Assembly (NCBI GenBank): GCA_030668825.1
Contig: DAOVET010000001.1
Span: 42,634 to 106,633, forward strand
Source: Candidatus Heimdallarchaeota archaeon
GTDB taxonomy: Archaea > Asgardarchaeota > Heimdallarchaeia > Heimdallarchaeales > Heimdallarchaeaceae
Length of the DNA stretch: 64,000 bases
Direction: 5' to 3'
The translations under genes and the position numbers were made by a program. This document shows, in pieces, positions 3,844-22,427 of the stretch (the stretch's first letter is position 1; each line of letters opens with the position of its first letter). A model generated the notes under the pieces. It had not been told where the DNA came from. It was given only the letters and a program-made list of their open reading frames with translations, and ran no database searches.

Positions 3844-3881
3844 AAAGGTTAATTATCAACTGTAGAATTCATTTTCTATCT

Positions 3882-4272: not shown

Positions 4273-4926
4273 CTATCTCTTGTTTGAATTTTTCTTTCGG
4301 ATTGCGAAAATCACAGTACATATCAACAAAATGGATAATAGTGGTAATGCAAAAGAAACATTTGTTTGTTCAGTAGGATAATAGTCAAATTCAATGTAAG
4401 TGACATTCATATTACCTGAATTCATCTTTATTAAAGCAGGTAGTTCTAGAGTAGTTATGTTATTTACAAAATAACCTGTATTTATTGGTCTCCAGAGAGT
4501 ATAATTTCCATCCTCGGGTTGAGATAAACCCGATTGATTAATATAAAATTTCACGTAACTATGTTCAACAGTGATTCCTGGAGCATAAGAATAGTGCATT
4601 ATTGTTGCATGAGCTATCATCAATGGATCAATTACCAGTGTTTGGTTACTAAGGGTTGCATTTATGAAGACTTTAGGATAAAAATCTGATAACTCAACTA
4701 CTGTTTGATTTTCCTCAGCTCTATTCAGAATTTCTACAGTAACACCGATACCAAATAGAGTAGAATTTGGTTTATTATATAGATTAGTAATTACAGCAAT
4801 TTCACTAACTTCTGATACTCTTGAAGCAATAACAGGAAGATTACCAGAAACTGATAAATTGATTGAAGAAACACATATGTATGCAATTAATATTAAAGTA
4901 AGATATTTTCCTAGTGGTTTAATCAT
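4273..4926 (-). CDS. Surface protein with signal peptide and C-terminal TM anchor
   Basis: N-terminal hydrophobic signal, many NxS/T sequons, C-terminal TM plus RKKNSNKR tail. Confidence 0.8.
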   Translation of the reverse strand: MIKPLGKYLTLILIAYICVSSINLSVSGNLPVIASRVSEVSEIAVITNLYNKPNSTLFGIGVTVEILNRAEENQTVVELSDFYPKVFINATLSNQTLVIDPLMIAHATIMHYSYAPGITVEHSYVKFYINQSGLSQPEDGNYTLWRPINTGYFVNNITTLELPALIKMNSGNMNVTYIEFDYYPTEQTNVSFALPLLSILLICTVIFAIRKKNSNKR

Positions 4927-4995
4927 ACTTTTTCCTCCATTTAATCTTTTTAGCAGACGTACCTAATTAAAGTTAAGTACGAGGTTTAATAATTC

Positions 4996-6192
4996 TTACC
5001 TTGCTAGTCTCCCCTCCGTATATGCCTTTCCAAATGCTAAATAAGCATCTATATATCCATATCCAAATTTTTGATCAAAAGTGCTTCGCGAACTAGCATA
5101 GTATAAGATATCCAAAACTTTCTGGAGAGAAGGGTCAGTAGAAGAACCTATTCCATTGTGATAAGCTGTTATTATCAAAGCAATTGTTGCAGCCAAATAG
5201 GGAGTACTAAAACTGGTTCCAGCTCCATATTTCCAAATACCTCTATAGATTCCAAGTGATTGATCATAATATGCATCCGTTAATATAGGTATACCATTCC
5301 CTGGTTCTACCCAGTTTACAATATGATTACCTGTAGTATAAGATTTATACCAAGATGAAAACCAGGATTTATGATGTATCCATGAGTCGCTTCGATCTTC
5401 ATGATCTATTGAACCAACAGCATACCACTCAGAGTAATATGATTGATACATGTAATTATAACCCCAACGGTAATTAAGATAATTGTAATAGTTACCAGCT
5501 GCTGTAAGTAACATCACATTTTTAGTAATCAAACTTGCCCATTTTTGATGGATTGTTGTATCTTCAGTAAAATCAATTCTTGAGACCCAAGACCATGAAA
5601 CTATATCGATATCCTTTGATGCTTGATTATCATCTATCCATTCCCAAATTTCATATTGTCCATAAGTAAATCCATAGGGATCATATAACTCTTCCTCTTC
5701 ATTTTCCACATATAAATCGATAAAAATGACTTTTACATCTCTGGCGATGGAAGCTAGTACAGATATAACTGCAAATCCATGTCCATGAAACACTTGATTG
5801 TCTAGAAATGGATCATTAGGATTAGTAATGAATTTTATTTCATTATAACATCTGAAATCGTTTGTTAAGAACCCAACAATATCCACATTCGCTTCAGGAT
5901 TTTGTTCTAAAGCTTTCCATTCCAAATCAGTTAAACCATCATCAATTATTACGACAGTAACATAATCATCTATAGTAACTCCATGCTCATACACAATTAC
6001 ATCTGTTTCTGTATACTTATATGCTGCATCTTGAAGATTTCCAACTTTTACTGCTGGATTTATAACAGGATCACCAATTGCTCCGCATTTTAACCAATCT
6101 AACATTTTGAGTTGATTATTACACATATCAGGTAAAGGTGCCAATCCAATACATACTATCAAGCAAAAGGAAAGAATTTTTTCATATTTCAT
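4996..6192 (-). CDS. Secreted S8 (subtilisin-like) serine peptidase
   Basis: Catalytic triad motifs VVIIDDG, HGHG and GAGTSFSTP; oxyanion AAGN; C-terminal GYGYID; signal peptide. Confidence 0.88.
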   Translation of the reverse strand: MKYEKILSFCLIVCIGLAPLPDMCNNQLKMLDWLKCGAIGDPVINPAVKVGNLQDAAYKYTETDVIVYEHGVTIDDYVTVVIIDDGLTDLEWKALEQNPEANVDIVGFLTNDFRCYNEIKFITNPNDPFLDNQVFHGHGFAVISVLASIARDVKVIFIDLYVENEEEELYDPYGFTYGQYEIWEWIDDNQASKDIDIVSWSWVSRIDFTEDTTIHQKWASLITKNVMLLTAAGNYYNYLNYRWGYNYMYQSYYSEWYAVGSIDHEDRSDSWIHHKSWFSSWYKSYTTGNHIVNWVEPGNGIPILTDAYYDQSLGIYRGIWKYGAGTSFSTPYLAATIALIITAYHNGIGSSTDPSLQKVLDILYYASSRSTFDQKFGYGYIDAYLAFGKAYTEGRLAR

Positions 6193-6411
6193 TATTCTTG
6201 ACTCCTAGATAGTAATTTTATCAAATTCTAGATCCTCTTGTTTCCTTAAAAACCTGTCTTATTTTCAGATGCTGCAAATGTGTCGTAAATTTCCAATATT
6301 CTTTCTTTCATTTCTTTCAATGTTGTTTTTACCACCTTTATAAATCAAACTCCTGATAATAGTTCACCTACACTCCTTGTTTTACATCCCACTGAAAGTA
6401 AAAAAGGATAG

Positions 6412-6966
6412 TTGGTGAAAGAAGTGGGTAAGAACATGTATACAAGATTAAAAGAAGAAGTAAAGAAATATCTCTCCTCTTTTAAAAGGTTTCAAGAAGA
6501 ACTACAATCATTTAAAGAATTTAGAAGAAGTATTGATTTACCATCAGAGATGACAATAGATCTATCGGAAACTAAGGACCAGATGGAAGCTATTAGAAGA
6601 TATGAAGCAAGATTACAGAAAGGAAAAGATGATCCAACTTGGTTTACTCTCACTAAGATGGTTACTGATGTTTTTTTCGAGATGAAAAAAGAGTTTGAGG
6701 TATTCATGCAAGAACCTCAGTTTCTAGAAGGTAGAAAGTGTAAAAATCTAGTTGATTTAACTACTTATGTAGTTGGAGAATTACAAGAACTAGAAGTTAA
6801 GCTTTACTCCAAACACATGGATGAAGTAGATTGTTCTGTTTGTAACCAAAGTCATCTTATTCTTGATGAGAATAGAGCAGAACAGACATGTAAAAACTGT
6901 GGCATAGTAATTAGAGATAAGATATCCGAAGAGGAAATTAGTCTTAAATCACAACCTTTTTTCTGA
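6412..6966 (+). CDS. Coiled-coil protein with C-terminal TFIIB/TFB-type zinc ribbon
   Basis: CSVCNQSHLILDENRAEQTCKNCGIVIRDKI fits the TFB Zn-ribbon pattern CxxC..l.D....E..C..CG.V; no cyclin folds; probable ATG at 6436. Confidence 0.7.
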   Translation: MVKEVGKNMYTRLKEEVKKYLSSFKRFQEELQSFKEFRRSIDLPSEMTIDLSETKDQMEAIRRYEARLQKGKDDPTWFTLTKMVTDVFFEMKKEFEVFMQEPQFLEGRKCKNLVDLTTYVVGELQELEVKLYSKHMDEVDCSVCNQSHLILDENRAEQTCKNCGIVIRDKISEEEISLKSQPFF

Positions 6967-7030
6967 TAAAAACTTAAAAAGGATAAGGATAAATTCTACT
7001 AATCTTAATTATTACTTAAATAACGAATAT

Positions 7031-7609
7031 TTGGATGGAAAAATAATGACTATTGATGGTTATGATTTACAGGATGGTTTTACTAGAAATTATCATTCCT
7101 TTCAATTGACAGGAGAGCATACAAATACTACTTGGACACATAGAATCCTCGGTTACTTTGATAGACTGGGGAGAATGCTAGGATACGAAGTACAATTTGA
7201 AAAAGAAATATATGATTTAACTTGGTGGGATTATTCAATTAATCAAGAAAAAGGGAAGATTATTCTCCATGTCGAACATGAAAATTCAACAAATAAGAAT
7301 AAGATAATCGAAGAAACTTTAGAATACAAAATTCTAGATTCTGAAGCAAAAATAGCTCTTGCTATCTGTTATCCTAATAATTCTCAAGATTTTGATGAAA
7401 TTAAACTTTGGATTAAAAAGAATGTTAAAAAACGAATGAAAGCAGAAGAAGTAGCCATCATAGTAGATGGTTGTTGTTATGGAGAAGAACCATATCATTT
7501 TGCAGTTCACATGATTACGAAAAAGAAATCAGAACTATACCTTTATGACAAAATAACAGTAAATGAATATCATTGCTTAGAGTATAAGACAGAAGAAAAT
7601 TACGCGTGA
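7031..7609 (+). CDS. PD-(D/E)xK restriction-endonuclease-like protein
   Basis: GYEVQFE...YDLTW...ILHVEHEN catalytic-type pattern. Confidence 0.65.
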   Translation: MDGKIMTIDGYDLQDGFTRNYHSFQLTGEHTNTTWTHRILGYFDRLGRMLGYEVQFEKEIYDLTWWDYSINQEKGKIILHVEHENSTNKNKIIEETLEYKILDSEAKIALAICYPNNSQDFDEIKLWIKKNVKKRMKAEEVAIIVDGCCYGEEPYHFAVHMITKKKSELYLYDKITVNEYHCLEYKTEENYA

Positions 7610-7638
7610 TGGACGTATCGTGTAAAATTGTGAATTAT

Positions 7639-7869
7639 TCATTGATTTTGTATTCTCGCTTTTATTTTTTTTGTTTCTTCTTCAGATAAAATCTTATCTC
7701 TCTTCCCTAAACTACATTCTTTGCATGTTGTTGCTAGATTGTCTAGTGAATGTTCTTTTACTATTGACCAAGGTATAATATGGTCAACTTGTAATTCAAC
7801 TTCTGGAGCTGAACGACCACAAATTATACAAGAAAAATTATCTCGTTGTAGAACCTCAAATCTCAAACT
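7639..7869 (-). pseudogene. HNH endonuclease domain, in frame behind the stop of the upstream membrane-protein gene
   Basis: SLRFEVLQRDNFSCIICG...VDHIIPWS...NLATTCKECSLGK; no ATG of its own; directly follows TAA at 7870-7872 in the same frame. Confidence 0.75.
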
Positions 7870-8493
7870 TTAAGGAATTGAACTTTCATCATCTTTTTTG
7901 ATTTTTGCTGTAAATACAAAACCCCCTAAACATACAAAGAAAATTCCAAATGTTAAGAGAAAAGCACCAATAACCATCCACCACCATTCTAAGTCAAAAA
8001 CTAATATCCATAATCCAACAATAGAAGAATATAGTAAGTTCAAGTAAGTACGTCCTCTGAATATCAATCTGCAAAACAATTCCTTTCCATTCTTTGGAAT
8101 ACTATAACCTAGAATATATTTCCTGATTTCTTCATTATCAAATCCTTTTATTTGTAATCGAACAAAATGCAGAAGCACGTATTCTTTCATCTCTTCGTAC
8201 ATAGTTGTAAGATTAAAATAATTGCACCCAATAACAAAGATTCCAATAAAAATTACAAAACCAATCCGTAGATAAGGTTCATCATTTTGTGTTGAAGGAA
8301 AATCGATCTGAATGTAACTTGAACCAAAATACGCTCCTAATGAAATTATTGCTAACAATGATGGGAATACAGAAATAAATCTAAACTTTTGAGAATTTAG
8401 GAATTTAATTCTATTAAGAATCTGTTCATGAAGAGTCAGAAGTTGTTCTTGTGGAATATCATCGTTTTCTTTCTTATCATCTTTTTTTGTCAT
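7870..8493 (-). CDS. Multi-pass membrane protein (probable N-terminal part of a TM-HNH fusion)
   Basis: About four hydrophobic helices; ends SSIP* in frame with the HNH domain. Confidence 0.75.
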   Translation of the reverse strand: MTKKDDKKENDDIPQEQLLTLHEQILNRIKFLNSQKFRFISVFPSLLAIISLGAYFGSSYIQIDFPSTQNDEPYLRIGFVIFIGIFVIGCNYFNLTTMYEEMKEYVLLHFVRLQIKGFDNEEIRKYILGYSIPKNGKELFCRLIFRGRTYLNLLYSSIVGLWILVFDLEWWWMVIGAFLLTFGIFFVCLGGFVFTAKIKKDDESSIP

Positions 8494-8705
8494 TTTCTTT
8501 CATCGTAAACAGATAAATAGCACATATTTAAATCCCGATGTTTTTTTCACTAAATATAATAGATGTAAGAATTTTAATTTTTTTTCAATTTTCGGTATGT
8601 TTCTGATACTATACACTCCAATAATTCGTCAAAAACTACTTTTTATACTCAAATTTAAATAGAATAAAAAATAATTAAGATTGCTTTGAGTAATTCGTAT
8701 ATAAG

Positions 8706-9251
8706 TTGGGAAAAATCATGAATAACACTTCAAATAACAAAAGTGATGAACAACTACAATATGAATTAAAAAAACTAATAGACAAGTATAATAAATTCAA
8801 GAGAGACAAAGGTCGTTCAGGTTTAAATAAATTGAATGAAGCAGAAGTAAGAAAAGACTTCATTGATCCTTTCTTTGCAATTCTTGGGTGGAATATTCAT
8901 GATTCCTCAGAGTATGGTACTGAAGAACATATCAAAGGTGTAGGAAGAGCAGATATCATATTAAGAGATTCCAAGCTTATTTCCACAAAACCTCAAAGTC
9001 TTGTTTATGTTGAAGCAAAACGGTTTGGTATTCTTCATTCTAAACCACTTGATACTAAACAAGTTGATCTTTTGGGAAAATTTGTTCCTGATTGGACAGA
9101 AGAAGATAGACAAGCAACTAATTATGCAATGGCAAAAAACATAAGATGGGCAAGAATTAATGGAATATATCCTATTGTTGTCAGTCAAGAAATCAACAAT
9201 CAGATAATGGGTAAAATAACATTTGAAATTATTGCACATTCAGATATTTAA
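8706..9251 (+). pseudogene. Truncated type I HsdR-N / type IIG restriction-modification N-terminal nuclease domain
   Basis: NEAEVRKDFIDPFFAILGW...GRADIIL...VEAKR...QATNYA...IRWA; family resemblance stops at ~9152, and no methyltransferase or helicase domain follows. Confidence 0.7.
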
Positions 9252-9277
9252 TATTTTGTTAATTAGGTTCAGAAAAT

Positions 9278-11623
9278 TTATAATAAATTAGCTAAATCAT
9301 TTAATACCTCAAATTCTGAAAAATCGGTTCCAATTCTCTCCACTAATCTATATATCATTTCACTACTTGTGCTTTTTAATCTAATTTTTTCTCCAGCAAT
9401 TTCTTCTAAAACTTCTTCTAAAGAGCCCAATTTCCAAATAAATATATTATCTTCTAAAAGGAGTTTGGTAAAATCATTTAGAATTTGTTCATTTGCTAAA
9501 ACATTTTCTAGATTCTTATCAAGAAACTTAGATAATTCTTCTTGTTCTTTGAATTCATTTAGCATTTTTCCAAGAACAGAATCCTTGAAAGGTAAATATT
9601 TCTTTTTTGTATCCCCTTTAGTTTTGTTTGCAATTGGAAAAGCTGCATCTAGATCTACTACTATTAAGGCTTCAACCTCAAGTTTTTTTATTAGTTTCCA
9701 AACAATTGGAAGGTTTCTAATTCCATGTAATTCAATTATATCCCAACCATTTGATTCTAATTTGAAATTCTCAGGAAAATTAGTCCCCAGTTCTTCAACG
9801 AATAATTTATCGTTTGGTCCTTCTACAATCATAACTTTGTTAGAAAAGAGTAGTTTATTTACACTGTCGATTCTTTTTAGGAATTTACTTGCTTTACCTT
9901 CAGATGACTTTCTTTTTGATTCTTCTTCTTTGTCATCAATCTCAGATATGTTAAATCTTATTAGTTTTCCATATACACCTTTCCAGATTTGTGTTCTGAG
10001 AAAATCGTTAATGAAATATGGGGAATGAGTAATCAAAATATAAGTAGGAATAATCTCTTCATTTAGATAGTTCGATATTGTGTTAATCACTTTTCTTTGT
10101 AGTTGTGGATGTAATGCTCTTGCTGGCTCATCAATTATGATTGTTTTATCTCCTCTTTCAAATAAAGAAGTTAGAATCATTAAAGTTTCATAAGCTCCAC
10201 TTGGTGCTTCATGCATCTCTATTGGTACATTCATGCTATCTGTAAATTGAATTAAGGGAGCTCTTTCTATAACATTTTCTTCTATATCAGCCCATTTAAC
10301 ATTTTTTTGAATATCTTCATTATATCCTGTTGTTGATGTTGTTCTAATAACATCCCCAATTATAAGTTTAGGATAATTTTCTGTTACTCTAATTGGTTCT
10401 TCTTTTACATAAACATCAAATTTCATTTTGAAAAGATTCTCAAATTCTTTCTTTAAATCATAAAATCTCTTTCGTTCATTCTGTATAGAAGAATTTTTCC
10501 ATCTATAAAGTGTTTCAGATAATTGGTTTATGGTGAAATAGCTGATACCCGAATAATCTTCAGCAATAAGACCTCTATGTTCAGGTATAATAATTGTTCT
10601 GTTTTTAAAGAGTTTTTTAATAATGTTGCAAAAAATAATATGAGAACCTTCATTTTCAATCGGATAAAACGCTTTAATTTTTTGAAATACTTCATATGAA
10701 AGATTTTTAATTTCACCCTTTCCATACTTTAGATTCAGATTTGGTAAAGTTATCTTATAGGAAATATCTGCATCAAATGTACTTTCAAGCATTTTGTTTA
10801 CAACATTAGGAGAAATTTTAGCATCATCTTTTCTCAAAAAAATATGCATTGCTTTTAGTAAACTTAGATTAACATCACTGTTCTTCTCATTACTTAAACC
10901 ATCATAATCTATTAGATAGCATCTAGATTTCTGAAAAACAGATATTGAAGGTATCAATCTAGTAACATCTGCTTTAAGATTAACTTTTATTTTCTTAAAT
11001 AGTTGACCGATATTAGAATGCATATCATTTGATAAAAGAATCCTCTTGAATTCTAATAGTCTATTACCTTTCAAAAAACCAAGTTTAAAAGTAAAATCAG
11101 ACTTTTCAAGGGTTTCTTTAAATTTCTCAAAGTTATTTTTATCCAGTTTTGAAAAAAGTTGATTTCTTTTTTCTTGAATTTTCAGCACTGGGGTTTGTTT
11201 AGTCTCAGGCAATTTAAGATTTAAAATATTTTTATTAAATTCATATAGATTATTGATTTCGTTATCATCAATATCAAATATAATTTCTCTGATGAACATT
11301 TCCTTGAAATCATTAAATCTGTTTGATTCTTCCATCTCTTCTATTTCTCTATAGATACTCACGCATAATATTGAACCAAGTAGTTCCTGCTCAAATTTTG
11401 ATAGTTCAAGTTCTATGTTTAGGTTAATATCTGGATCATATTTACCTAAATCTACAGAGTTTTTTTCTAAACACAAACCCACCAGTTTAATAGCTCTTAC
11501 TACATTGGTTTTTCCAGATCCATTAGGTCCAACTATGAAGTTGTTTCCGTTGTTAAAAGTGATTTCTTGGGTATCTTCTCCATAAGACAGGAAATTCCTG
11601 AGTTGGAGTGATGTAATTTTCAT
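9278..11623 (-). CDS. OLD-family ATP-dependent nuclease (ABC ATPase + TOPRIM)
   Basis: Walker A GPNGSGKT, signature PSG, Walker B/D-loop IIIDEPARALHP, H-loop ITHSPY, TOPRIM VEGPND and VDLD. Confidence 0.88.
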   Translation of the reverse strand: MKITSLQLRNFLSYGEDTQEITFNNGNNFIVGPNGSGKTNVVRAIKLVGLCLEKNSVDLGKYDPDINLNIELELSKFEQELLGSILCVSIYREIEEMEESNRFNDFKEMFIREIIFDIDDNEINNLYEFNKNILNLKLPETKQTPVLKIQEKRNQLFSKLDKNNFEKFKETLEKSDFTFKLGFLKGNRLLEFKRILLSNDMHSNIGQLFKKIKVNLKADVTRLIPSISVFQKSRCYLIDYDGLSNEKNSDVNLSLLKAMHIFLRKDDAKISPNVVNKMLESTFDADISYKITLPNLNLKYGKGEIKNLSYEVFQKIKAFYPIENEGSHIIFCNIIKKLFKNRTIIIPEHRGLIAEDYSGISYFTINQLSETLYRWKNSSIQNERKRFYDLKKEFENLFKMKFDVYVKEEPIRVTENYPKLIIGDVIRTTSTTGYNEDIQKNVKWADIEENVIERAPLIQFTDSMNVPIEMHEAPSGAYETLMILTSLFERGDKTIIIDEPARALHPQLQRKVINTISNYLNEEIIPTYILITHSPYFINDFLRTQIWKGVYGKLIRFNISEIDDKEEESKRKSSEGKASKFLKRIDSVNKLLFSNKVMIVEGPNDKLFVEELGTNFPENFKLESNGWDIIELHGIRNLPIVWKLIKKLEVEALIVVDLDAAFPIANKTKGDTKKKYLPFKDSVLGKMLNEFKEQEELSKFLDKNLENVLANEQILNDFTKLLLEDNIFIWKLGSLEEVLEEIAGEKIRLKSTSSEMIYRLVERIGTDFSEFEVLNDLANLL

Positions 11624-11844
11624 AAATATTTTAGTCTCAACTTAATTTATAAATCATACGATTGAATGTTCATTTAAAATTCTAATCAATCAGATTCTAT
11701 GATTGGTTGGTTTAAAGAAAGAATCTATCTCCACTTTATTGATTTCCAAATTTTTAATATCAATTTCTCTGCTAAACATAAATAGTACTACTACGAAGAT
11801 CAATATACAGTAAGAATCAAATAAAAAGTGTAAATTCTGATGTT

Positions 11845-12216
11845 CTAATACTGTCTTTTTCTATTAAGAAAGTTTGCTTCTACTTCTGCTTCTATCTCTT
11901 CTCTTATCTTCTCCTCCATTCTTTCAGCCCATTTATTGAAGAGATACTTAAATGGTAACACTTCTATTAAGAATAATAGTAAGAATATTCCAGAACCTAT
12001 TACTCCCAATATTCTCAATAATATCATCCATATTGCTTCCCCCAAAACTGTCTTCTCAAAATAGAATGCTGCTGCTGTTCCGCAAATAAACACTACTGCT
12101 CCTATGAACGCACCTAATCTATCTTCCCAGCTAAATACTTTTTCTCTCTCTCTTCTTATCCTTTCTGCGTATCTCTTTAATTCAGTATTTTTTATTATCA
12201 TATAAACCCAAACCAT
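11845..12216 (-). CDS. Small two-TM membrane protein
   Basis: Two hydrophobic helices flanked by charged segments. Confidence 0.6.
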   Translation of the reverse strand: MVWVYMIIKNTELKRYAERIRREREKVFSWEDRLGAFIGAVVFICGTAAAFYFEKTVLGEAIWMILLRILGVIGSGIFLLLFLIEVLPFKYLFNKWAERMEEKIREEIEAEVEANFLNRKRQY

Positions 12217-12318
12217 ATCTTTTTTTCATCTTTCTACTCATCTCTGCAGGATGTGTTTCTTCTATTATTATCACCATCCACATGACGAAAAATACTGTCA
12301 AATATCCCATTATCTCTA

Positions 12319-12633
12319 TCAACTTATCCCCTCCACTAACAGCTCCCCTATTGTCCTCTCTGTCATCTCAAAGAAGCTCATTATCCCCTCACTCTCATGG
12401 ATCAGTTCATGTAGTTTCTTTAGTTTCACTTCCCTTCCCAGATTATCCTCGAAAGCTATCTCATAACTCCATGCTCTCTTCTCCCTCTCTTCTATCATCC
12501 ACTCCTTCTGTTCTTCAAAGAAGTTCTTCAGGAAGAATTGTAATCCATATACTGTCGTTATCTTCTGTCTTGTTAGTTCTATCCTTCCCTCTTTCCCTTC
12601 TACATAGATTACAAAGACCATATTCCAGTTCAT
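12319..12633 (-). CDS. Hypothetical protein
   Basis: 104-aa Glu-rich ORF on the purine-rich strand, like its neighbours. Confidence 0.45.
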   Translation of the reverse strand: MNWNMVFVIYVEGKEGRIELTRQKITTVYGLQFFLKNFFEEQKEWMIEEREKRAWSYEIAFEDNLGREVKLKKLHELIHESEGIMSFFEMTERTIGELLVEGIS

Positions 12634-13032
12634 TTTGCTCTATTTTGCTTATCAGAACTTTGGTTTATAAAGTAGGGAAAGTTTTTTTCTCGAGTTTTTA
12701 AATCAATTTACAGATTAGTGGTTGAAGCTGGCACAAACCCTTGAAATTCATATATCTAAAAAATATAACTCATCACACTTTAGCTGGCTTCGACCCACTC
12801 TTTTCTTCTCTCAATCTCCTTCATCAGTTACTTATGGAAGCAAAATTAAAAATCTGGGTTTTAGATTGATAAAATAGAGAAAATTAGTGAATTTTTCAAC
12901 CTTCCTCTCAAACACCTGAAAAAAATAGACTTCTAACTTATCTCACATTTAGTATTTCTATATCCTTATTTTATTTCGATAGAGGAAAATCAAAAATGCA
13001 AAAATCAAACAAACTATTCTTGTTCAAGTATA

Positions 13033-14700
13033 CTATCTTCTTCTTTTAGAACTAAATCGGGAATAACCAAATACAATTAGTGGGATTAGTACAATTAAAG
13101 AAAGAAACGAGTAGTAAATATTATTATTCCTATAAACTGGAGGTTCAGAAAGAGGATAAAGATCTTGTGCATTTGCAAATCCATCAATATAATAGCTACC
13201 AACTACCACAAAATAGTCTGACCAATAATTTCCTTCCTCATTTTCTTCATCATACCAGAGATTATCTCCATCATCTCTCGCTTGGGAAGTACCGTAATAC
13301 TGGTTGTTATTGTAAAAGGAATTATGGTGAACAAGATTGTTGACTGAATCTTCATCTAAAAATACTCCCCAAAAATAATTATTAGTTAAAGTATTGTAAG
13401 TAATAGAGATATTTGATGAGTTTTCAAGCACTAACCCATGATTATTATTGCTTAAAATATTATTTTCGATTAATGAATTACTTGTTTGCACAAGTAGAAT
13501 CCCTTGTTTTTTATTGAAACTACAGTTATTGTTCATGATGGTTATTCTATCACTAAATTTAACATGTATTCCTATTAATGTTTGATCCAAGACTTGATTT
13601 TTTATCATGAATTCAGAGCAATTGGAAATAAATAGCTGACCATAGATTGGTTTTGTTATTTTCAAATTATTTTGGTTTGTAAAATAACCGTACTCTTTTC
13701 CATTTATCATATTGTTGTACACTGTGTAAGTATGATAATCTGCTGGATTTAATTCGTAAAAATAATAGTCACACTCTGTTAATGTATTCCCAATAAATTC
13801 AGAAAATTCTGAATCCCTTACATATATACCATTAGACTCGGTAGTAATTTCATTATTTATAACAGAGACATTTCCACTATATACTACTGTTAATCCTATT
13901 CCTCCTCCAAAACAGTAATTGTCTGTTACTACAGAATCATTTGAATGAGATAATCGAATGTTAAACTGAACATTATTGAAACAAGAGTTATTTGCAACTA
14001 AAGCTGCTCTAGATGTATGAAGATATATCCCTCCTAAATAAGAATTGTTATGAAGAGAATTGCTAACAACGGTAGCGAAGAAACTGCTACCAAGAAGTAA
14101 TCCTCCTTTGAAATTATCTGAAATATTATTACCATAGATATAACTAGAATTACAATTATTAAGGAAAATACCTCCTTCATTACTCTTTGTACATGTATTA
14201 TTTACGATTCTAATATTTGGTGAAAATATTACATGGATACCATAGCGTAAACCTTCATTACATGTATTTTTGATGAGCTCTATACCTTCTGCTTTACTGA
14301 TCTCCATCCCAGATTTTTGATAATTCTGACACAAATTTTCCTTAATTTTGATACTGTTAGGTGCTACATTTAGAATATAGATACTGTAGTTATCACCATC
14401 CAGAAAACAATTTTGGATCAGGAAGCATTTGGTAGTATAAGATATTGATATACACGCTTCTTCGGTTGTAGTAATGTTAAGATTCTCTATACGGTAAGGA
14501 TCTACAGCTGTTCCTTCTCCTGGTAAGCTGTAAAGAGAGATATTGGTATCAGATTGTATGACAATAGGTATCGAGATTATATATGAATTAGAATTTAAAT
14601 TTCCACTATCTGTGGTAGCTGTAGTAATTTCTATACTCCAACTTTTCATTAGAATTAAACTGAAACACACCACTACTAGTAACCCTTTCTGATATTTCAT
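13033..14700 (-). CDS. NosD-like right-handed beta-helix surface protein
   Basis: Repeated GIxL...N.I.NN parallel beta-helix units, C-terminal GNYWSDY...D.YPL motif, signal peptide, TM anchor plus basic tail. Confidence 0.88.
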   Translation of the reverse strand: MKYQKGLLVVVCFSLILMKSWSIEITTATTDSGNLNSNSYIISIPIVIQSDTNISLYSLPGEGTAVDPYRIENLNITTTEEACISISYTTKCFLIQNCFLDGDNYSIYILNVAPNSIKIKENLCQNYQKSGMEISKAEGIELIKNTCNEGLRYGIHVIFSPNIRIVNNTCTKSNEGGIFLNNCNSSYIYGNNISDNFKGGLLLGSSFFATVVSNSLHNNSYLGGIYLHTSRAALVANNSCFNNVQFNIRLSHSNDSVVTDNYCFGGGIGLTVVYSGNVSVINNEITTESNGIYVRDSEFSEFIGNTLTECDYYFYELNPADYHTYTVYNNMINGKEYGYFTNQNNLKITKPIYGQLFISNCSEFMIKNQVLDQTLIGIHVKFSDRITIMNNNCSFNKKQGILLVQTSNSLIENNILSNNNHGLVLENSSNISITYNTLTNNYFWGVFLDEDSVNNLVHHNSFYNNNQYYGTSQARDDGDNLWYDEENEEGNYWSDYFVVVGSYYIDGFANAQDLYPLSEPPVYRNNNIYYSFLSLIVLIPLIVFGYSRFSSKRRR

Positions 14701-14754
14701 TTTATCACTCTTGTTTTATCTTCTAAATCTCACTTATTCACAATTTATTCTGAA

Positions 14755-16476
14755 TTATCTCAATTTCTTTTCTTGATTATTGAATCTTTTTTTCCTAATT
14801 GTTATTTGGAAATAACCATAAATCATCAGAGGAATAATAACAGCAAACGAGAAAAAAGCATAGTAAATATTCTTATTTCTATAAACTGGGTGTTCAGAAA
14901 GAGGATAAGGATCTACAACACCAGCAAAACCGTCTATACTGTAGTTTCCAACTCCTGAATAGTCTTCCCAGTAGTTCCCCTCCTCTTTTTTCTCATCATA
15001 CCAGAGATTATCTCCATCATCTTTTGCTTGGGATGTACCATAGAAGTTGTTGTTTATGAAAACGTTATGGTGTATTGAGTTATTAGCAGAACCACCACCT
15101 AATACCACTCCCCATAATCCGCTATTTGTTATCACATTGTATGTGATCTCATTGTATGAGGATTGCTCTAATAAGATTCCATACAACCCATTATATTCTG
15201 AAGTGTTGTTAATTATATTCACTCGTTCAGATTTAAATAAATAGACTCCACTTCTGCTATTAAACTTGAAAACTGATTTTGAAATAGATATGTCCTCGCA
15301 ATAATATAGACTTACTCCTGTAGAAAAACTACTTATCAACTGGTTCTTAATTTTGATGTTATTACAATTTACAAGATGTAACTGATTAAAGATTGCTTCT
15401 GAAAGAGTAAGGTCATTTTCATCAACAAAATACCCGAAAAGTTTGTCATTAACGTAATTGGAAGTTACGTAGTACTTCCTGAAATCTTCCACAGTTGATT
15501 CGTATATTCTAAACCCACAATCATAAAGCATATTATTGCTGATTATTGAGTATTCCGCATCCTTTAGATATATACCTGTATTACTCCCTGCACAGATATT
15601 GTCAGAAACAGTCACGTTACCGCCTAAAACAACAATAATCCCATATATTTCACCAGAACAAATGTTTCTTGTTACTAAAGAGAAATTTGAGCTGTGGATA
15701 TCTAAATTAGGTTGCCGATTATTATAACAGATATTATCAGAAACTGTCGATGTATAACACCTAAGTAATCTTATCCCTCCATGTAAATCATTTAAGTAAC
15801 AGCGATTATGCATAATAAGAGAATTCGTACAATCATCCAACACAATCCCTCCTTTTTTATTCTCATAACAAGTATTGTTTTTAACTATGCTTTCAGAACT
15901 TTTATCTATAAACATCCCGACCCAGCTGTTATCAAAACAAGTATTAAGCTCGATTTGACAATTTGGTGAATCTTTGATATGTATACCAAAATAGCTATTT
16001 GAGTAACAGGTGTTATTAATTATCAGTGAGTTTGATGAATTATAAATACGAATTCCTCGTATAGAATTACCAATACAAATGTTGTTTTCAATTTTTGCAG
16101 TTTCATTTTTAACTGATTCTATTACAATACCATTTACAGATGCGTTTACAAAACAATTTTGAATTAGAAAGTGTTTAGTTGTATTGTAAACATAAATTCC
16201 CCTTTCTTTTGTTGTAGTTATATTGAGATTTTCAATTATGAAAGGATTTACAGCTGTTCCATCACCTAGAAATCCATAATCTGTGAAATTAGAGTCATTT
16301 GTAATAACGATTGGTAATGAGTCAATATAGGAAAGAAAAGGTTGATAAGCTTCTTTAGAAGGAAATCTATAACATGTATTCTGAAATTCAGTTTCTTTAG
16401 ATTCTACTGAGGTAAACATTGACAGTAACAAAATACAAAAAATTGTAACTGTTACATTCTTTCTCATATAACCCAT
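14755..16476 (-). CDS. NosD-like right-handed beta-helix surface protein (tandem paralog)
   Basis: Same architecture as 13033-14700; shares GTSQA.DDGDNLWYDE..EEGNYW. Confidence 0.88.
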   Translation of the reverse strand: MGYMRKNVTVTIFCILLLSMFTSVESKETEFQNTCYRFPSKEAYQPFLSYIDSLPIVITNDSNFTDYGFLGDGTAVNPFIIENLNITTTKERGIYVYNTTKHFLIQNCFVNASVNGIVIESVKNETAKIENNICIGNSIRGIRIYNSSNSLIINNTCYSNSYFGIHIKDSPNCQIELNTCFDNSWVGMFIDKSSESIVKNNTCYENKKGGIVLDDCTNSLIMHNRCYLNDLHGGIRLLRCYTSTVSDNICYNNRQPNLDIHSSNFSLVTRNICSGEIYGIIVVLGGNVTVSDNICAGSNTGIYLKDAEYSIISNNMLYDCGFRIYESTVEDFRKYYVTSNYVNDKLFGYFVDENDLTLSEAIFNQLHLVNCNNIKIKNQLISSFSTGVSLYYCEDISISKSVFKFNSRSGVYLFKSERVNIINNTSEYNGLYGILLEQSSYNEITYNVITNSGLWGVVLGGGSANNSIHHNVFINNNFYGTSQAKDDGDNLWYDEKKEEGNYWEDYSGVGNYSIDGFAGVVDPYPLSEHPVYRNKNIYYAFFSFAVIIPLMIYGYFQITIRKKRFNNQEKKLR

Positions 16477-16640
16477 GCAAAATCCTCTTCACTCAAAATA
16501 AGGCAGATATTAATTTTTAAAGATTTTGACTGCATTTTAATTAATTTCCTTTTTCGAATACTATTATAAGTGTTTAAGATATATTATTCTAGATAAAAAG
16601 ACGGTTCAAACATATAGAAGACTTATCTAAAGGTGAAAGA

Positions 16641-18092
16641 TTGAAAACCAAATTCAAAGTGGCTATAATTGCCGGAGCAATAATAGGGCTCGTAAGTATA
16701 ACTATCCCTACTGTTTTTTTTCTAATACAACCTCCAGAGATAACCAATGGTAATAATGACAATAAGAGTATTGATAATGTTATTTACCCAAATCCGCTTT
16801 TTTACCGAGGAACAATTTCAGATATGATGCTTGAAAGTGACGACAGAGTACAGTTTATTGTAGGTAGCTATAATGCCACCTATGTCACCTATCCTCATTC
16901 ACCTGCTTATATAATTTTAGATCACAAAAATCAAACGTGTACATATAAAGAGATGTTCCCAGGAATTACTTCAGGAAATATGCATCAACTAAAAATAGGT
17001 TTAGGTCCAAATAATGAGTCAATTGCTTATAATTTTTTTACCAATCCTTTCGGTTATCTAGTGGCATACTTGTACAAAACAAATACTCTTGGGAGATGGA
17101 TATTCTATCCTGCACTTTCTGATAAACCCATGCCTTACGGTGGTTTTAATAGGAGAAGTGTGTATAACTGGAATTTTATGCCTTCAGGAAAAATAAATCT
17201 CGCTTTCTTATATCAAGGAACTTATAATACACCTGCAATCTATAATGAAACAACAGATAGTTTTTTCTTCTTGAGCGATGTTTTTGAGGAAATTAAAGAT
17301 CAAGTAATTCTTAACAGGTATGGAGACTTTGCAGTTGTAGATTCAAATATTTTCTACTTTTGGTCAGAATATATAAATGAGTACAACTTTCATCCTTATC
17401 TAGCTATTAAATGGCAGGGAGAAGGATGGCAACTAACAAGAATAGGAAATGAATCAGAAACATATATGCCCATCAGTATTATTCCTCAGAAAAATGTAGT
17501 GAATATTTTTTATCATGATTCTGGTAAAAGCAGTTTGAATAGTAGACTCTATCACACCCAGATTTATAATTCTACTAGTAATACTACAACACTTCTACAC
17601 CAATTTGATGGGAGAACTGTTTTTCGTCAAGATTCTGTATGTGCTCTCTCTCAAAATGAGTATGTGTTCTTGTATACTAAAGGGTCGTATGTACTAAATG
17701 CACAAAGAGATCTGTTTATGGGTTATTATGATGGTAAAGAATTCTATGAATTTATGCTTACAGATACTCCACAACTTCTTGAACATCGAGCACATTGTGA
17801 ATTAGGGGAGAATTACATTCATTTGGCTTGGGAAACTAGTATAGACAAAGGAACTGGAATCTATGACCCAATGCAGACTAATCTTTTCTATAATAGAATA
17901 TCCTTAAAGGAAATAAGACTGTCAAAAGAAACTGTTATAATACCATCAATGATAACCATAAAGAATGAAAACCATAGAACAAAGCTCTTTAACGATTGGA
18001 CTTTCTTAAAACTTACTATCTATATTGCTCTGTCCATCAAAATCCTTTTTTTTCCAGTAAAATTCTTGTGTGAGATACAGGGATTCTTATGA
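16641..18092 (+). CDS. Membrane-anchored extracellular protein (beta-rich, possibly propeller-like)
   Basis: N-terminal TM, Tyr/Asn-rich beta-type body; preceded by aaggtga RBS-like motif. Confidence 0.7.
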   Translation: MKTKFKVAIIAGAIIGLVSITIPTVFFLIQPPEITNGNNDNKSIDNVIYPNPLFYRGTISDMMLESDDRVQFIVGSYNATYVTYPHSPAYIILDHKNQTCTYKEMFPGITSGNMHQLKIGLGPNNESIAYNFFTNPFGYLVAYLYKTNTLGRWIFYPALSDKPMPYGGFNRRSVYNWNFMPSGKINLAFLYQGTYNTPAIYNETTDSFFFLSDVFEEIKDQVILNRYGDFAVVDSNIFYFWSEYINEYNFHPYLAIKWQGEGWQLTRIGNESETYMPISIIPQKNVVNIFYHDSGKSSLNSRLYHTQIYNSTSNTTTLLHQFDGRTVFRQDSVCALSQNEYVFLYTKGSYVLNAQRDLFMGYYDGKEFYEFMLTDTPQLLEHRAHCELGENYIHLAWETSIDKGTGIYDPMQTNLFYNRISLKEIRLSKETVIIPSMITIKNENHRTKLFNDWTFLKLTIYIALSIKILFFPVKFLCEIQGFL

Positions 18093-19784
18093 AATTATTA
18101 TTGTTTTCATTAAATTGGTTTGAACTAAGAAATATTCAGGGTCTGTATTGTCGTTATAACAAGTGAGCACAAAATTAATTGTAGAATCTACAATAAATGA
18201 AGTGTTGAGAAAACCTCTAATTTGATAATTACCTGATTTTTGGAGCACAAAAGAGTAACCTCGTGATCTATTTAAGATTAAGTATTCCAATTGCGGTTCT
18301 TCTGCAATGATTTCAATATAACTAAATAATCTAAATGTGTCAAATAACAAATTATTGTCACTATCTATAACTATAGAATCGACTCTAATAATATCTGCAC
18401 GCATAAAATCTGGAACATTGTGGTAAATATATTGGAAATTAATTTCCATTACAAAAGTAGAATTTTCATATAATTCTACTTCTTTAATCGTTATTGATGA
18501 ATTACTAGACCAATTCATACCATAAGCATCAGCAATTTCAAAGTTGTTGACAGTCCAACCATCACAAACTTCTTCTCCTTGGATGATCAAATTACTAGGA
18601 AGCCCTAGAACTAAAATTATTAGAATAAAGGAGATTGCTTTTTCAATTTTTATCTTTTTGGAATAATTAATTGGAACGATTTTATCCACTTCTTTAACAA
18701 TCTTATCCTCTTCTTCAGTCTGATCAGTTTTTTTTCTCATTTTTAGTTTATGTATTAGAAATAGCAAACTCGAAGATAGTATCAATGGAATTATAAATAA
18801 TAAAAGAACCATAATAAAACCTGCTAGAAATTCGCTTGAAATTGCAGAAATGTCCAAATTGAGATATGATTCTAGAATAAGGGATAAGAGTAAATTGTGA
18901 AATAACAAATCGCTCCAGAAAAATATTGTAAACAAGGTTATAGCTATAAAAAATATACTAGCTATCGAAAGTGAAATAATTTTAATTTTTCGTGATTTTG
19001 CTATTAAAGGTTCCTTAATCTTGCTTTGTAGTTTTGAAAGTATTAAAAAGATCCCACTTGTCACAAAAATATAAGCTAAGTAGATACCCAAAGGACCAAC
19101 TTTTCCAGTAATAGGTAAAGTAAAAAGACAAGCAGAACCGAACATTCCAACTAAGCTAAAAGTATAAATCCCATAGAATGGAATAAATGCAATTGTTTGA
19201 TCAACTAGTTCTTCTTTACTATTTGTCCCCTTATGTTCACTTGAGCTCCTTGTTTTTTTCGTAGAAATAATTAAGATCACCCCTTTTAGAAACAACAATA
19301 AAGGAGTAATAAATATTAAGAACAAGAAAAGAACATTCAAATTATTAGTATAACTATTTGCTCCACCAAGAAACATTATAGCTCCCCCTGCCCCATGAGA
19401 CGAGTATTGTATGTGAGCTATTAGTCTTACTAGCTCATCTATATGATATATTGCGAAAAAAACACTAAATAATCCCACTTTTCTTGGGTAGAGTCTAGAG
19501 AGAAGGAAACCAGTGAGTACAAGAATTGCACTTAATATATAATTGGCTAAAGTGTTTTTTTCATTTGAAATATATGCGTCTATCTCGACCCAATTATATT
19601 CTATTGTTCCATTAGCTGAAGATATATCCTGAATTTGAATCGTTTGATCATATAGTGTTAACTTTGATACTCTTATAGTTGCAATAAGTATAAAACCAAC
19701 AATTATCAAAACAGAGAGTATTAAAACAATATAATCCCAACATTTATTCTTGGAAATGTAAAAATGCATTCTTGTTTTCCTCAT
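18087..19784 (-). CDS. Polytopic membrane protein with C-terminal extracellular domain
   Basis: 565 aa with about 9 hydrophobic segments. Confidence 0.75.
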   Translation of the reverse strand: MRKTRMHFYISKNKCWDYIVLILSVLIIVGFILIATIRVSKLTLYDQTIQIQDISSANGTIEYNWVEIDAYISNEKNTLANYILSAILVLTGFLLSRLYPRKVGLFSVFFAIYHIDELVRLIAHIQYSSHGAGGAIMFLGGANSYTNNLNVLFLFLIFITPLLLFLKGVILIISTKKTRSSSEHKGTNSKEELVDQTIAFIPFYGIYTFSLVGMFGSACLFTLPITGKVGPLGIYLAYIFVTSGIFLILSKLQSKIKEPLIAKSRKIKIISLSIASIFFIAITLFTIFFWSDLLFHNLLLSLILESYLNLDISAISSEFLAGFIMVLLLFIIPLILSSSLLFLIHKLKMRKKTDQTEEEDKIVKEVDKIVPINYSKKIKIEKAISFILIILVLGLPSNLIIQGEEVCDGWTVNNFEIADAYGMNWSSNSSITIKEVELYENSTFVMEINFQYIYHNVPDFMRADIIRVDSIVIDSDNNLLFDTFRLFSYIEIIAEEPQLEYLILNRSRGYSFVLQKSGNYQIRGFLNTSFIVDSTINFVLTCYNDNTDPEYFLVQTNLMKTIIIS

Positions 19785-19949
19785 TCTTGATTAGATGTTA
19801 TAAGTACAAACGCGCTCTTAAAAATTCTTTGGAACATTGCTATAGCGCAAAACATAGAATCCATTTTATCATTCTCGCCCTTCAAATTATCATAAAACTA
19901 GTGGAGTAGCAATGATATATGAAATTCTATCTTTTTACAAGTAATATAA

Positions 19950-20079
19950 ATTGACACCGGTGGACAGGGGATGTTTACCTATCTCCGTCCCAAATACTAC
20001 TCTTGACATCCCTGTTATCATCTGCGGTAACAAATTTGACCTTAACGAAGCTCGTACTCTTGATAAAGATACTATTTAA
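19950..20079 (+). pseudogene. Relic of a third small GTPase (G3 and G4 fragments joined by a deletion/frameshift)
   Basis: 19950-20003 reads IDTGGQGMFTYLRPKYYS then stop; 20002-20079 in the next frame reads LDIPVIICGNKFDLNEARTLDKDTI*. Confidence 0.8.
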
Positions 20080-20092
20080 ATTATATTCGTCT

Positions 20093-20422
20093 CAAGAAGT
20101 TTTCAGACAAATCAGAAGTAAATATTTCTTTGGAAGCAAAGGTGCTTTAGCTATTTGTGATGCCTCTAATTCTGAATCTTTTAAGAATATCCCCTCGTGG
20201 GTTGAATCTTTTAAAAAGGAAGTGGGAGATAAGCCTATCATTTTTCTAGCAAATAAATGTGATTTGAAGGATCAACAAGTCACTGAGGATGACATGAAAC
20301 AATTGGTTAAGGATTACAGTAACACTGAATATCTGTATTCCTCTGCAAAAGATGGAACAAATGCTGAAAAAGCTTTCATCAACTTAACCAGACTTATGGT
20401 TGCTGAAGAAGATATAGTATAG
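20093..20422 (+). pseudogene. Orphan 3' half of the Rab-like GTPase (lacks G1, G2 and DxxG)
   Basis: QEVFRQIRSKYFFG...NKCD...SAK...VAEEDIV; 84/109 aa identical to the region encoded at 1094-1420. Confidence 0.9.
20120..20163 (+). repeat. Direct repeat, right copy (candidate attR core)
   Basis: 43/44 identical to 1121-1164. Confidence 0.75.
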
Positions 20423-20606
20423 TTATTTGAATAATTCTCTTAATCCGTTTGAGCTTCTTTCTTTATAAGGTTCAAAGCAAGAGTGATTTCCCAAAAAAAC
20501 CTAATTCTTATAGTTTATCCATAAATTTCTGAAAATCACTAATCTAAGAAACCTTTTTATTATTGAAGGAGAGTTTTATTTTTGAGAATCTAAAAGGCGA
20601 ACAACA

Positions 20607-22427
20607 ATGAAAAAAAGTATCCTAATTTTTATCTGTCTTTTTCTTTTCTTACCTTCTATTACTCAAATTAATGCTCAAAATCCAGATCCATTTTTCTCTC
20701 TTTCTTTCCTAACTCCAAATACTTCAACTGAAAGAATTGAATGGTCAGAGCTAATAGCTCAAGAGCTTGGACAAATAGGTGTTGAAGTTAATTTGAACAA
20801 TATTACTGGCTGGTCTGGAATTGGTTCCAGAACTTGGGGTTATCCATTAATTGATTATGACTACATACCACCTTATGATGAAGGCGGCTACGATGTATTA
20901 TTTATGGGATGGAATGATTATTTTGATTGGAATCCCGAAGCCTGGTTTGCTTCAGAAAGTATAGTACCTTATGGTGATAATTTCTATCAATACAACAATA
21001 CTCAGTTTGACCAAAAACTAACTGAATATCTTTTAGAAGCTAATATCACTACTAGAATTGAAAAAGGGAAAGAACTACAAGGTATTATTTATGAAGATCA
21101 ACCCGCTATAGGAATTGTATACTTAAAACATGTCTATGGATTCAATGAAAATATAGTAGGTATGGATACTACTCTGTTCGGTCAAGCTTCTGATCAAACT
21201 CAGTTTTGGGATGTTCCGAGTGATCACAATCTTACTTTTGTTTCTCCCACAGTTTTTTACGACAATAATATCTTTCGTGCCAGTTCATACTTTGATGCAC
21301 AATGGATGCAAGCTGTTTATGGTTCTTTATTAAGAAGATCTCAAAATTCTCATCTTTTTGAACCTGAAATTGCAAAAAATATTTCATATACTCCAATAAT
21401 CAACGATGAAATCAACATTACAGTTTTCCTTGATCCAAATGCTAAATTCAGTGATTTAAGTCCAGTATTACCCTCTGATGTAAAATACAGCTATGAATTA
21501 TATATGACTCCCGAAGTAAATTCAGATCGTTACGGAGAATTTGCTTTTGGCTATTTTGAAAGCCTTGATTCAATTGAAATAATTGGACCAGATGTTTCTG
21601 GAGGACAATTATTATTCAAAATGAAAGTAATAGATTACTATTGGATGAATGCTTTTGATGCTGGTATTATAGATAAGAGTGAAGTTGAACCTCTTATCTC
21701 AACCTATGGTTATAATATCTTCTGGGAACCTCCAGGCACAGGTAACGTAGGTTGGTCTCTTGTCAAATCCTGCGGACCATTTGTTGTAGACAAATATAAT
21801 CCTACACTAAATATCGTAAACCTAAAAACACAACCGTACTGGGTAAATCTAATAGCTTCAGGTGGAAGTCCTGCAAAACTCTCCGAGTTAAATTTCAAAC
21901 ATATTCCTACAAAAGAGGCTGCATTTGGGGAATTGTTAACTGGAGAAGCTGATATAATAGACCGTTACTACTATTACCCCTTAAGTATTTTTGAAGATTT
22001 TTCTGGAATTATTGGTATAAAAGCAAAATCTCTGAGTCACCAACAATTAGCTATCAATATGAAACACCCAATAATTGGAACAGGAGAGTTGACACCAATT
22101 GGATTAGCTGGAGCAGCTAGAAATATTAGAAAAGCAATAAGTTGTTCAATCCCACGAGATTATATAGCCGCTAATGCTACATCTCAATCTCAATATAATT
22201 ATAGTTATGATCCAGGAATCCTTCCTATTTCTGAAGCAATAGTTGGATTTCTTGATAGTCTTCAGCCTTATCCTTATGATATAAATATGGCAAGGTTATT
22301 TATGGAACTAGCCGGATATGTTATCACAATAAAAGAATTCAGCAACATAAATATTTTCTTAATAACAGTTGTAGGTTTATGTTCTATACTACTAATAAGA
22401 AGGAGAAAGAATAGTAAAAATTGTTAG
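20607..22427 (+). CDS. ABC transporter substrate-binding protein, family 5 (peptide/nickel-type), membrane anchored
   Basis: AKFSD..PV..SDVKYSY, GPF, IRKAIS..I.R and YDINMAR motifs; signal peptide and C-terminal TM plus basic tail. Confidence 0.85.
   Translation: MKKSILIFICLFLFLPSITQINAQNPDPFFSLSFLTPNTSTERIEWSELIAQELGQIGVEVNLNNITGWSGIGSRTWGYPLIDYDYIPPYDEGGYDVLFMGWNDYFDWNPEAWFASESIVPYGDNFYQYNNTQFDQKLTEYLLEANITTRIEKGKELQGIIYEDQPAIGIVYLKHVYGFNENIVGMDTTLFGQASDQTQFWDVPSDHNLTFVSPTVFYDNNIFRASSYFDAQWMQAVYGSLLRRSQNSHLFEPEIAKNISYTPIINDEINITVFLDPNAKFSDLSPVLPSDVKYSYELYMTPEVNSDRYGEFAFGYFESLDSIEIIGPDVSGGQLLFKMKVIDYYWMNAFDAGIIDKSEVEPLISTYGYNIFWEPPGTGNVGWSLVKSCGPFVVDKYNPTLNIVNLKTQPYWVNLIASGGSPAKLSELNFKHIPTKEAAFGELLTGEADIIDRYYYYPLSIFEDFSGIIGIKAKSLSHQQLAINMKHPIIGTGELTPIGLAGAARNIRKAISCSIPRDYIAANATSQSQYNYSYDPGILPISEAIVGFLDSLQPYPYDINMARLFMELAGYVITIKEFSNINIFLITVVGLCSILLIRRRKNSKNC

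Follow-up and report, generated by a model that had tools for sequence, protein, structure and literature searches.

A segment at positions 19,950 to 20,092 of a 64,000-nucleotide stretch from a Candidatus Heimdallarchaeota archaeon (the whole stretch is referred to as the window) is very probably dead DNA, namely the decayed, island-type 3' tail of a Ras-like GTPase gene (X) at the edge of an island inserted in another small GTPase gene (T). The window is part of a 106-kb contig of an assembly (G000) of 2.76 Mb with 90.6% completeness, and it was compared with other genomes of the genus.

The island inserted in GTPase T

The gene T is intact in the window and encodes a small GTPase of 175 amino acids. 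The features of this locus are as follows.

896 to 1423, plus strand: small GTPase T, intact, 175 aa with a GTG start; Pfam Ras match (E 6.5e-37) over profile positions 1-160 of 162
1079 to 1096, plus strand: G3 box of T (codons W62, D63, V64, G65, G66 and Q67, with D63 at 1082), where T switches from host-type to island-type in an alignment of 10 T sequences
1094 to 1423, plus strand: replacement T tail, island-borne; 76% identical (248/327) to the orphan tail, with the left-junction tail of G024 as its top match in the genus (84%)
1424 to 19885, no strand assigned: island body, encoding an S8 peptidase, a TFIIB-type zinc-ribbon protein, an HNH protein, an OLD-type ATPase-nuclease, two NosD/beta-helix proteins and two large membrane proteins (Pfam)
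20093 to 20422, plus strand: orphan T 3' part, the original host tail, from Q67 to the stop (109 codons); Pfam Ras match (E 6.1e-19) over profile positions 58-160

The 5' part of T (896-1075) shows 94-96% DNA identity to the uninterrupted alleles of G012, G009, G018 and G013, whereas the 3' part (1094-1420) shows only 75-77% identity to the same four alleles. The orphan contains no internal stops and is 92-98% identical to uninterrupted T tails, matching the allele of G009 at 321 of 327 bases. This pattern of identity in the 5' part, the 3' part and the orphan indicates that about 18.7 kb of DNA entered T at W62-D63-x-G-G-Q67, bringing in a new tail and displacing the old one. The locus of G012 is collinear on both sides and contains an uninterrupted T; this empty site identifies the 18.7-kb island as a true insertion. 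The target is present as direct repeats at both junctions (1094-1423 and 20093-20422, 76% identical), and the T junctions and the empty site have about CTGGGA in common. The T gene of G000 is, from these comparisons, a hybrid of a host 5' part and an island-borne 3' part. A T orphan is also present in G024, where it begins five codons earlier than that of G000, at the W codon.

Several other features were observed in and around the island. Part of the island cargo at 8706-11623 is a 781-aa ATPase that carries a TOPRIM nuclease domain of OLD type (E 2.6e-12) and adjoins a small open reading frame with a weak HSDR_N match; judged by these domains, the ATPase and its neighbour look like defence cargo. 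The minus-strand region 7642-8493 encodes a 207-codon membrane-anchored protein and, beyond a single in-frame stop, an HNH domain of 76 codons (Pfam HNH, E 1.2e-11), and is either a broken gene or two abutting open reading frames. At the left end of the window, positions 1-840 contain an open-ended open reading frame of 257 aa (1-771, minus strand) with a weak match to OrfB_IS605 (TnpB-like, E 0.0015). This reading frame lies in a 1.37-kb stretch just upstream of T that is missing from the collinear G012 locus, and the stretch probably represents a small insertion sequence. Between the T locus and a DUF2122 gene, an SBP_bac_5 solute-binding gene (20607-22427) is found in G000 and G012 and is not there in G024 and G001. 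The uninterrupted T allele of locus L005 (G018:C24) is a mosaic, in which about 70 G3-proximal bases are island-type and the rest is host-type. Such a mosaic would be the expected pattern if an island were lost via recombination between its two tails.

The relic and its parent paralog X

Two peptides had been read between the island and the orphan in the first-pass annotation, and direct translation yields both. Positions 19950-20003 encode IDTGGQGMFTYLRPKYYS, followed by TGA, and positions 20002-20079, in a frame shifted by +1 relative to the first peptide, encode LDIPVIICGNKFDLNEARTLDKDTI, followed by TAA. The G3 motif DxxGQ with switch II (DTGGQGMF from 19953) and the G4 motif NKxD (GNKFD in the second peptide) are both present. 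The features are as follows.

19886 to 19952, no strand assigned: flank left of the relic, 67 bases; G011 and G018 have the adjacent 565-aa gene without it
19953 to 20003, plus strand: relic part A, X codons 74-90 with the G3 box and switch II; 88-89% identical to host-type or orphan X and 78-80% to left-junction X genes
20004 to 20102, plus strand: relic part B, X codons 122-155 with the G4 box and beyond; contains a 1-base deletion, and its last 11 bases (20092-20102) are common to T

The relic DNA is single-copy in the G000 genome, and sequence comparison bears out the earlier reading that it is unlike either GTPase of the window. Matches at E <= 0.01 were found in 17 of the 24 other genomes of the genus. 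The top DNA matches to 20001-20092 among these 24 genomes show 85% (E 1.6e-22), 83% and 82% identity, with E values ranging from 1e-18 to 1e-22. This homology across the genus rules out a chance open reading frame. Pfam Ras is the sole family matched by the second peptide (25 residues; profile positions 104-125, E 0.033), with a score of 14.2 bits that lies below the PF00071 gathering cut-off of 21.6; the first peptide is too short for a Pfam scan. Because the Pfam score is below the cut-off, the Ras-family membership of the relic is based on its DNA homology to full-length X genes (E to 1.6e-22). The same homology identifies the source as a third, different Ras-like GTPase, as had been supposed, and the search for a parent that the first-pass annotation called for ended, by comparison within the genus, at the 195-codon GTPase X. 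This Ras-like paralog has about 36% protein identity to T and is full-length in 20 of the 25 genus genomes.

The relic is not an intact gene. It retains X codons 74-90 and 122-155 only, contains a frameshift and stops, and is missing the G1 P-loop and G5. Its two halves match one gene, X, in which they lie 95-100 bases apart. The gap, previously put at about 30 codons, is real and measures precisely 95 bases (X codons 91-121 plus 2 bases), a length that accounts for the shift of frame. A 1-base deletion near the relic end produces the TAA at 20077. The relic had been taken to end 13 bp before the orphan, but homology to X continues past the TAA, through these 13 bp to 20092, and includes the first 10 bases of the orphan. 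The frame of the T orphan is itself open upstream through the relic (19955-20422, plus strand; 155 codons between stops, including a TTG at 20003), so that a gene caller could report a 139-aa GTPase without G1 and G2. No match near gathering scores was obtained with Rfam on 19600-20500.

The gene X is also a target of islands. In G013, G018 and G024, an intact X gene is accompanied by an orphan X tail that starts at codon 74. Relative to the island-free allele of G012, codons 1-73 of the intact X genes of these three genomes are 91-95% identical and codons 78-195 are 75-78% identical, and the X orphans are 89-97% identical. The three orphans share one left flank and therefore count as one event. 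The X left junction, the X right junction and the empty site have only about ATACAGG in common. The X island of G024 is 2.2 kb long and contains two secreted-protein genes only, without a P0001-like gene (P0001 is the first gene of the T island, see below). The X locus of G000 itself is split over the ends of contigs C3 and C89, and its 5' half is unassembled. A 325-aa island-type gene on contig C1 of G000 was considered as a sign of an X island and set aside as uninformative in view of its host context.

Alignment with the X orphans places the left edge of the relic at the G3 box, as had been claimed. The edge reads AAATT followed by GACACCGG and lies 1-2 bases from the edge of the X orphans, with an unrelated flank. 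The sequence CTGGGA, which is kept at the T-type junction of G024, is absent from this edge. Homology of the adjacent island DNA to G011:C128 and G018:C604 ends at about 19885, to the left of the 67-base flank. Weak matches to the flank in G010:C63 and G015:C98 were rejected, as they adjoin no GTPase fragment.

Two kinds of X tail, host-type and island-borne, can be compared with the relic. Part B (99 bases) has 84-87% identity to the island-borne X tails, those found at the left junctions of G024, G013 and G018, compared with 71-75% to host-type X tails, among which G000's own X tail on contig C3 stands at 73%. Part A leans the other way, with 42 of 48 matched bases for host-type X and 41 of 51 for the left-junction type. 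The relic may accordingly be read in two ways, either as a mosaic or as a sequence whose 51 bases of part A would be too few to judge. No known X tail comes closer than 87% identity, so the actual source is not among the sequences compared. A parent within G000 itself was considered and rejected; the top peptide match there is the X tail at the C3 end (62.5% over 24 aa), which is host-type and shows the 73% DNA identity given above. These comparisons bear on a host origin, under which the relic would be the remnant of a tandem GTPase duplicate or an ectopic copy of the resident X. The paralogs are very similar in DNA at G3, as such an origin would have it, but X sequence is absent from the interval between T and the gene that follows it at the empty site of G012, and part B is closer to island-borne tails than to the resident X tail. 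A host origin is very improbable.

At its right end the relic passes directly into the orphan. The X sequence runs into the T orphan through TCAAGAAGTTT, which is the sole 11-mer common to both genes (X of G024 compared with T of G009). The context is ...CGTC-TCAAGAAGTTT-GATTAT in X and ...GAGG-TCAAGAAGTTT-TCAGAC in T, and the two copies correspond to X codons 152-155 and T codons 66-70, respectively. The simplest explanation of the joint would be that DNA between two direct 11-base repeats was deleted. The T orphan of G000 begins at Q67 because the microhomology joint lies in TCAAGAAGTTT. The first-pass annotation had stressed that both fragments start at DxxGQ; this stands for the relic, whose edge is at G3, while the start of the T orphan is set by the 11-base joint and the coincidence is in part an artefact.

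The same junction could have been made by the insertion itself, through homologous recombination of DNA arriving from another strain in the 5' part of T, with the far end joined at the 11-base microhomology (homology-facilitated illegitimate recombination) and no site-specific step. We regard this as quite improbable. It would leave unexplained why the X orphans, the relic edge and the T orphan of G024 fall within about 10 bases at G3 with unrelated flanks, and chance would have to place the joint no more than about 15 bases from where the new tail begins to diverge. The perfect 11-base microhomology, the failure to find an integrase and the pristine T orphan, as after a recent event, are the observations that agree with it.

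Fragment edges at G3 and the shared backbone

A survey of GTPase fragments was carried out with a custom profile over 50,023 open reading frames of G000, with Pfam Ras in six genus genomes (127 and 113 matches), and with X and T-flank queries in all 25 genus genomes. Fragments cut by contig ends were left out (G000:C3 and C16; G008:C39; G018:C459, C636, C460 and C619; G024:C122; G012:C94 and C11; and the first GTPase of L054). Ten fragments were not at contig ends. Six of the ten begin at G3, and none begins upstream of it. The six G3 starts are the T orphan and the relic of G000, the T orphan of G024 and the X orphans of G013, G018 and G024. The four later starts are a fragment of the G016 type (X codon 92), G004:C93 (about codon 105-112), a fragment of G023 (codon 127) and a T relic of G001 (about codon 151). 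No 5' GTPase fragments were found in the genus survey, and no short 3' fragment from G3 was found in three genomes of other genera (G025, G026 and G030; 84 Ras matches).

This tabulation of breakpoints, which had been proposed with the first-pass annotation, agrees with its suggestion of a recurrent target. G3 is a recurrent insertion point in two paralogs, as seen from the T orphans of G000 and G024, the X orphans of G013, G018 and G024, and the relic with its own flank. Independent edges at G3 are few, about three (the X orphans, the relic and the T orphan of G024), and they lie within about 10 bases of one another. By a rough estimate, the chance of three such edges in genes of about 550 bases would be near 3e-4.

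Other loci of the genus contain related structures. In G001 (L016, G001:C5, 5001-6805), an intact T is followed by one 382-codon secreted-protein open reading frame and then by a 21-residue C-terminal T relic. In G023 (L057, G023:C169, 1250-2323), an intact X is followed by 75 bases and then by an X fragment from G4 to the stop. Both loci are scars similar in kind to the relic. Contig breaks exactly at G3 were also observed. The metagenome contig L054 starts (bases 1-20) at TGGQ of an X-type gene, and G018:C636 (L061, bases 1-175) ends right after WDLAGQ of a third paralog. Such breaks may reflect population differences at G3 junctions, or only repeats.

The islands in T and in X share a backbone. 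Two genes of this backbone were identified next to the T tail of the window.

1425 to 2423, minus strand: P0001, 332 aa, all-helical; convergent with the T tail, 1 base from its stop, and the first gene of the backbone
2518 to 2940, minus strand: C-terminal remnant of an island protein of 520 aa; 137 aa align at 89% identity with residues 384-520 of its G013 counterpart

Homologues of P0001 occur at 6 places in 5 of the 25 genus genomes, and a GTPase tail lies alongside in 5 of the 6 places. The T gene of G024 contains the same island type, with a P0001 homologue at the left junction that is 85% identical. In G013, the P0001 homologue lies beside an X tail, shows 61% protein identity to that of G000 and has the 520-aa gene as its neighbour. 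The T island of G000 and the X island of G013 are 85% identical in DNA from about 1434 onward (the 3' end of P0001). Among the G000 T, G024 T and G013 X islands, homologous DNA starts 10-50 bases past the stop codons of the tails; the tail is hence an exchangeable module on a shared backbone. The metagenome contig L054 contains tail-plus-P0001 modules in tandem.

The proteins of the backbone belong to small families. P0001 has no match in Pfam, PHROGs or NCBIfam. Its family comprises 8 proteins among 5.8 billion, including two relatives with 88% identity (P0002 and P0003), and a profile search gave only 12 representatives among 1.84 billion, whose Pfam matches are zinc ribbons or noise. Scans of genome and metagenome collections gave three loci each only, and no relatives of P0001 were found in viral contigs. 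The AlphaFold model of P0001 is poor (mean pLDDT 58), and a Foldseek search of the PDB with this model gave no match at E <= 0.001. The family of the 520-aa protein consists of 4 proteins that carry no annotation. The protein atlas gave no usable match for P0001 or the 520-aa protein.

Origin of the relic, mechanism and meaning

The explanation that we favour as a whole, and hold with some confidence, combines a decayed X docking tail, an island family that enters G3, arrival with the island and a deletion. The island family enters GTPase genes at the G3 box (the W-D-x-G-G-Q codons) and supplies a copy, about 25% diverged, of everything downstream, so that the gene stays whole, and the old tail is pushed to the far island end as an orphan. 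The relic is very probably the front section of such a replacement tail for X, extending from G3 to a point some 20 codons beyond G4. This X tail would have belonged to the island either as a docking module of its backbone that predates the present one or is an alternative to it, or because an X-type sister element had fused with the island, and it would already have been decaying on arrival. A deletion between two copies of TCAAGAAGTTT would then have removed the DNA between the relic and the T orphan. Arrival of the X tail with the island is the preferred history, although its probability is about even. It is preferred on account of the backbone common to X islands, the pristine T orphan compared with the decayed relic, and the X-type left edge that lacks CTGGGA. 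Since the T and X islands are one backbone with swapped tails, arrival with the island is at least as likely as an earlier integration. Several observations count against the favoured explanation. Besides the failure to find a recombinase (see below), the small X island of G024 with its two secreted-protein genes, the leaning of part A towards host-type X, the 87% identity of the closest X tail and the small number of independent G3 edges, the right end of the T island of G024 is without a relic, and neither a free or circular element nor an island with both tails intact was seen.

The first-pass annotation had attributed the relic to a separate earlier integration at the T site. A third-GTPase relic, its edge at G3, a target that spans two paralogs and an island-type X tail are all retained from that interpretation; the separate event itself is only one of several histories that fit, and the pristine T orphan beside the decayed relic agrees poorly with it. 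In this history, an earlier X-tailed element would have entered T at G3, the present island would then have entered the same box and pushed the older tail inward, and the body of the earlier element would later have been deleted. The tandem modules on L054 and the deletion scars at the same loci in G001 and G023 provide precedents, the 11-base repeat is a ready path for deletion, the distal part of the relic is of island-borne type, and the 67-base flank lies outside the module of the neighbouring gene. Nevertheless, the T tail would have been orphaned first, and of the two it is the T orphan that has stayed intact, at 98% identity to a working allele, whereas the X relic is heavily decayed. 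A chimeric T/X gene would also be needed, and none is present among the matches listed in the 25-genome X survey. The left edge of the relic, moreover, does not have the CTGGGA of the T-type junction of G024. We consider this history unlikely, if worth keeping in view.

Recombinases were searched for at several levels. None was found with Pfam, PHROGs and NCBIfam in the island's 16 open reading frames of at least 123 aa, or with Pfam in 18 of the 19 leftover island open reading frames of at least 45 codons. With Pfam, the 9-kb X island of G013 and the L052 island yielded neither an integrase nor a transposase. The whole G000 assembly (2.76 Mb, 90.6% complete) gave no match to PF16795 or to PF00589 (Phage_integrase; E <= 0.1), and an Xer-like recombinase was likewise not recognised in it by the PF00589 search. 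Three small serine recombinases are encoded in the assembly, all on other contigs. Because no recombinase was found, it is from the edges only that we infer site-specific recombination at G3 by some enzyme, and the paralog switch, the deletion and the order of events are inferences as well.

Genomic islands that target tRNA genes insert in the 3' part of the gene, for which they bring a substitute end. Further examples are islands that target dusA and the island SGI1, which is inserted at the 3' end of trmE (PMC4482086; 10.1101/2021.06.18.448947). The present islands resemble such islands (tRNA, trmE, dusA) in having an empty site in a relative, an element-borne end that keeps the gene whole, a displaced end that forms a diverged direct repeat at the far junction, and the same insertion point in several genomes. 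They differ in that the target is the mid-gene G3 box of a Ras-like GTPase, so that about 60% of the protein is replaced, and in that one backbone is found in two paralogs. Moreover, no tyrosine or serine integrase was found in the islands, and the two junctions and the empty site share no more than about 5-7 bases.

In cdiA and rhs loci, orphan C-terminal modules lie downstream of the main gene. As in these loci, the working gene here has the newest tail, and older 3' fragments that start from a conserved motif lie downstream. A particular neighbour (P0001-like) tends to adjoin each tail, although the X island of G024 has none, and may parallel the cognate partner genes of those arrays; to judge from L054, modules may stack in tandem. 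Unlike cdiA and rhs, the main gene here is an ordinary Ras-like GTPase; the sequences suggest no toxin and indicate no immunity function, and homologous exchange by itself would give less sharp fragment edges than those observed.

Mobile elements of Asgard archaea have been described that insert site-specifically, and small GTPase genes have been noted in mobile-like regions, according to three reports (PMC8813620, PMC11529989, 10.1101/2025.07.27.667033). In these reports, a Tn7-like element in a methylase gene replaces the function of the gene that it disrupts (PMC8813620, PMC11529989, 10.1101/2025.07.27.667033). The elements described there come from the same host group, the Heimdall lineage. 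Their targets differ from those of the present islands, being tRNA genes, nrdD or a methylase gene, and their gene content includes integrases or Tn7 proteins. Full-text literature searches and term-matched passages of PMC8813620, PMC11529989 and 10.1101/2025.07.27.667033 gave no account of GTPase genes as Asgard insertion targets.

Two paralogs in one genus have been cut repeatedly at one box, and each insertion swaps about 60% of the protein for a copy that is about 25% different. To judge by the relic, tails of both paralogs have been linked with a single island lineage. Such an association points to a docking system that can move between paralogs and to a recombination machinery. In practical terms, automated gene prediction will yield truncated GTPases at these junctions, and G3 is a place where assemblies may break. 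Among the eukaryotic signature proteins that are hallmarks of Asgard archaea are the small Ras-like GTPases, and the islands bear on how their families diversify. We put forward, as a speculative proposal whose chances are rather slim, that islands with no known recombinase dock at G3, swap the region from switch II to the C-terminus and can change their docking tail between paralogs. If this is true, the driver would be a new kind of site-specific recombinase, for which P0001 and the 520-aa family are candidates, and mobile DNA would shuffle GTPase halves at a fixed joint, which would amount to cassette exchange in a protein family that was later expanded in eukaryotes.
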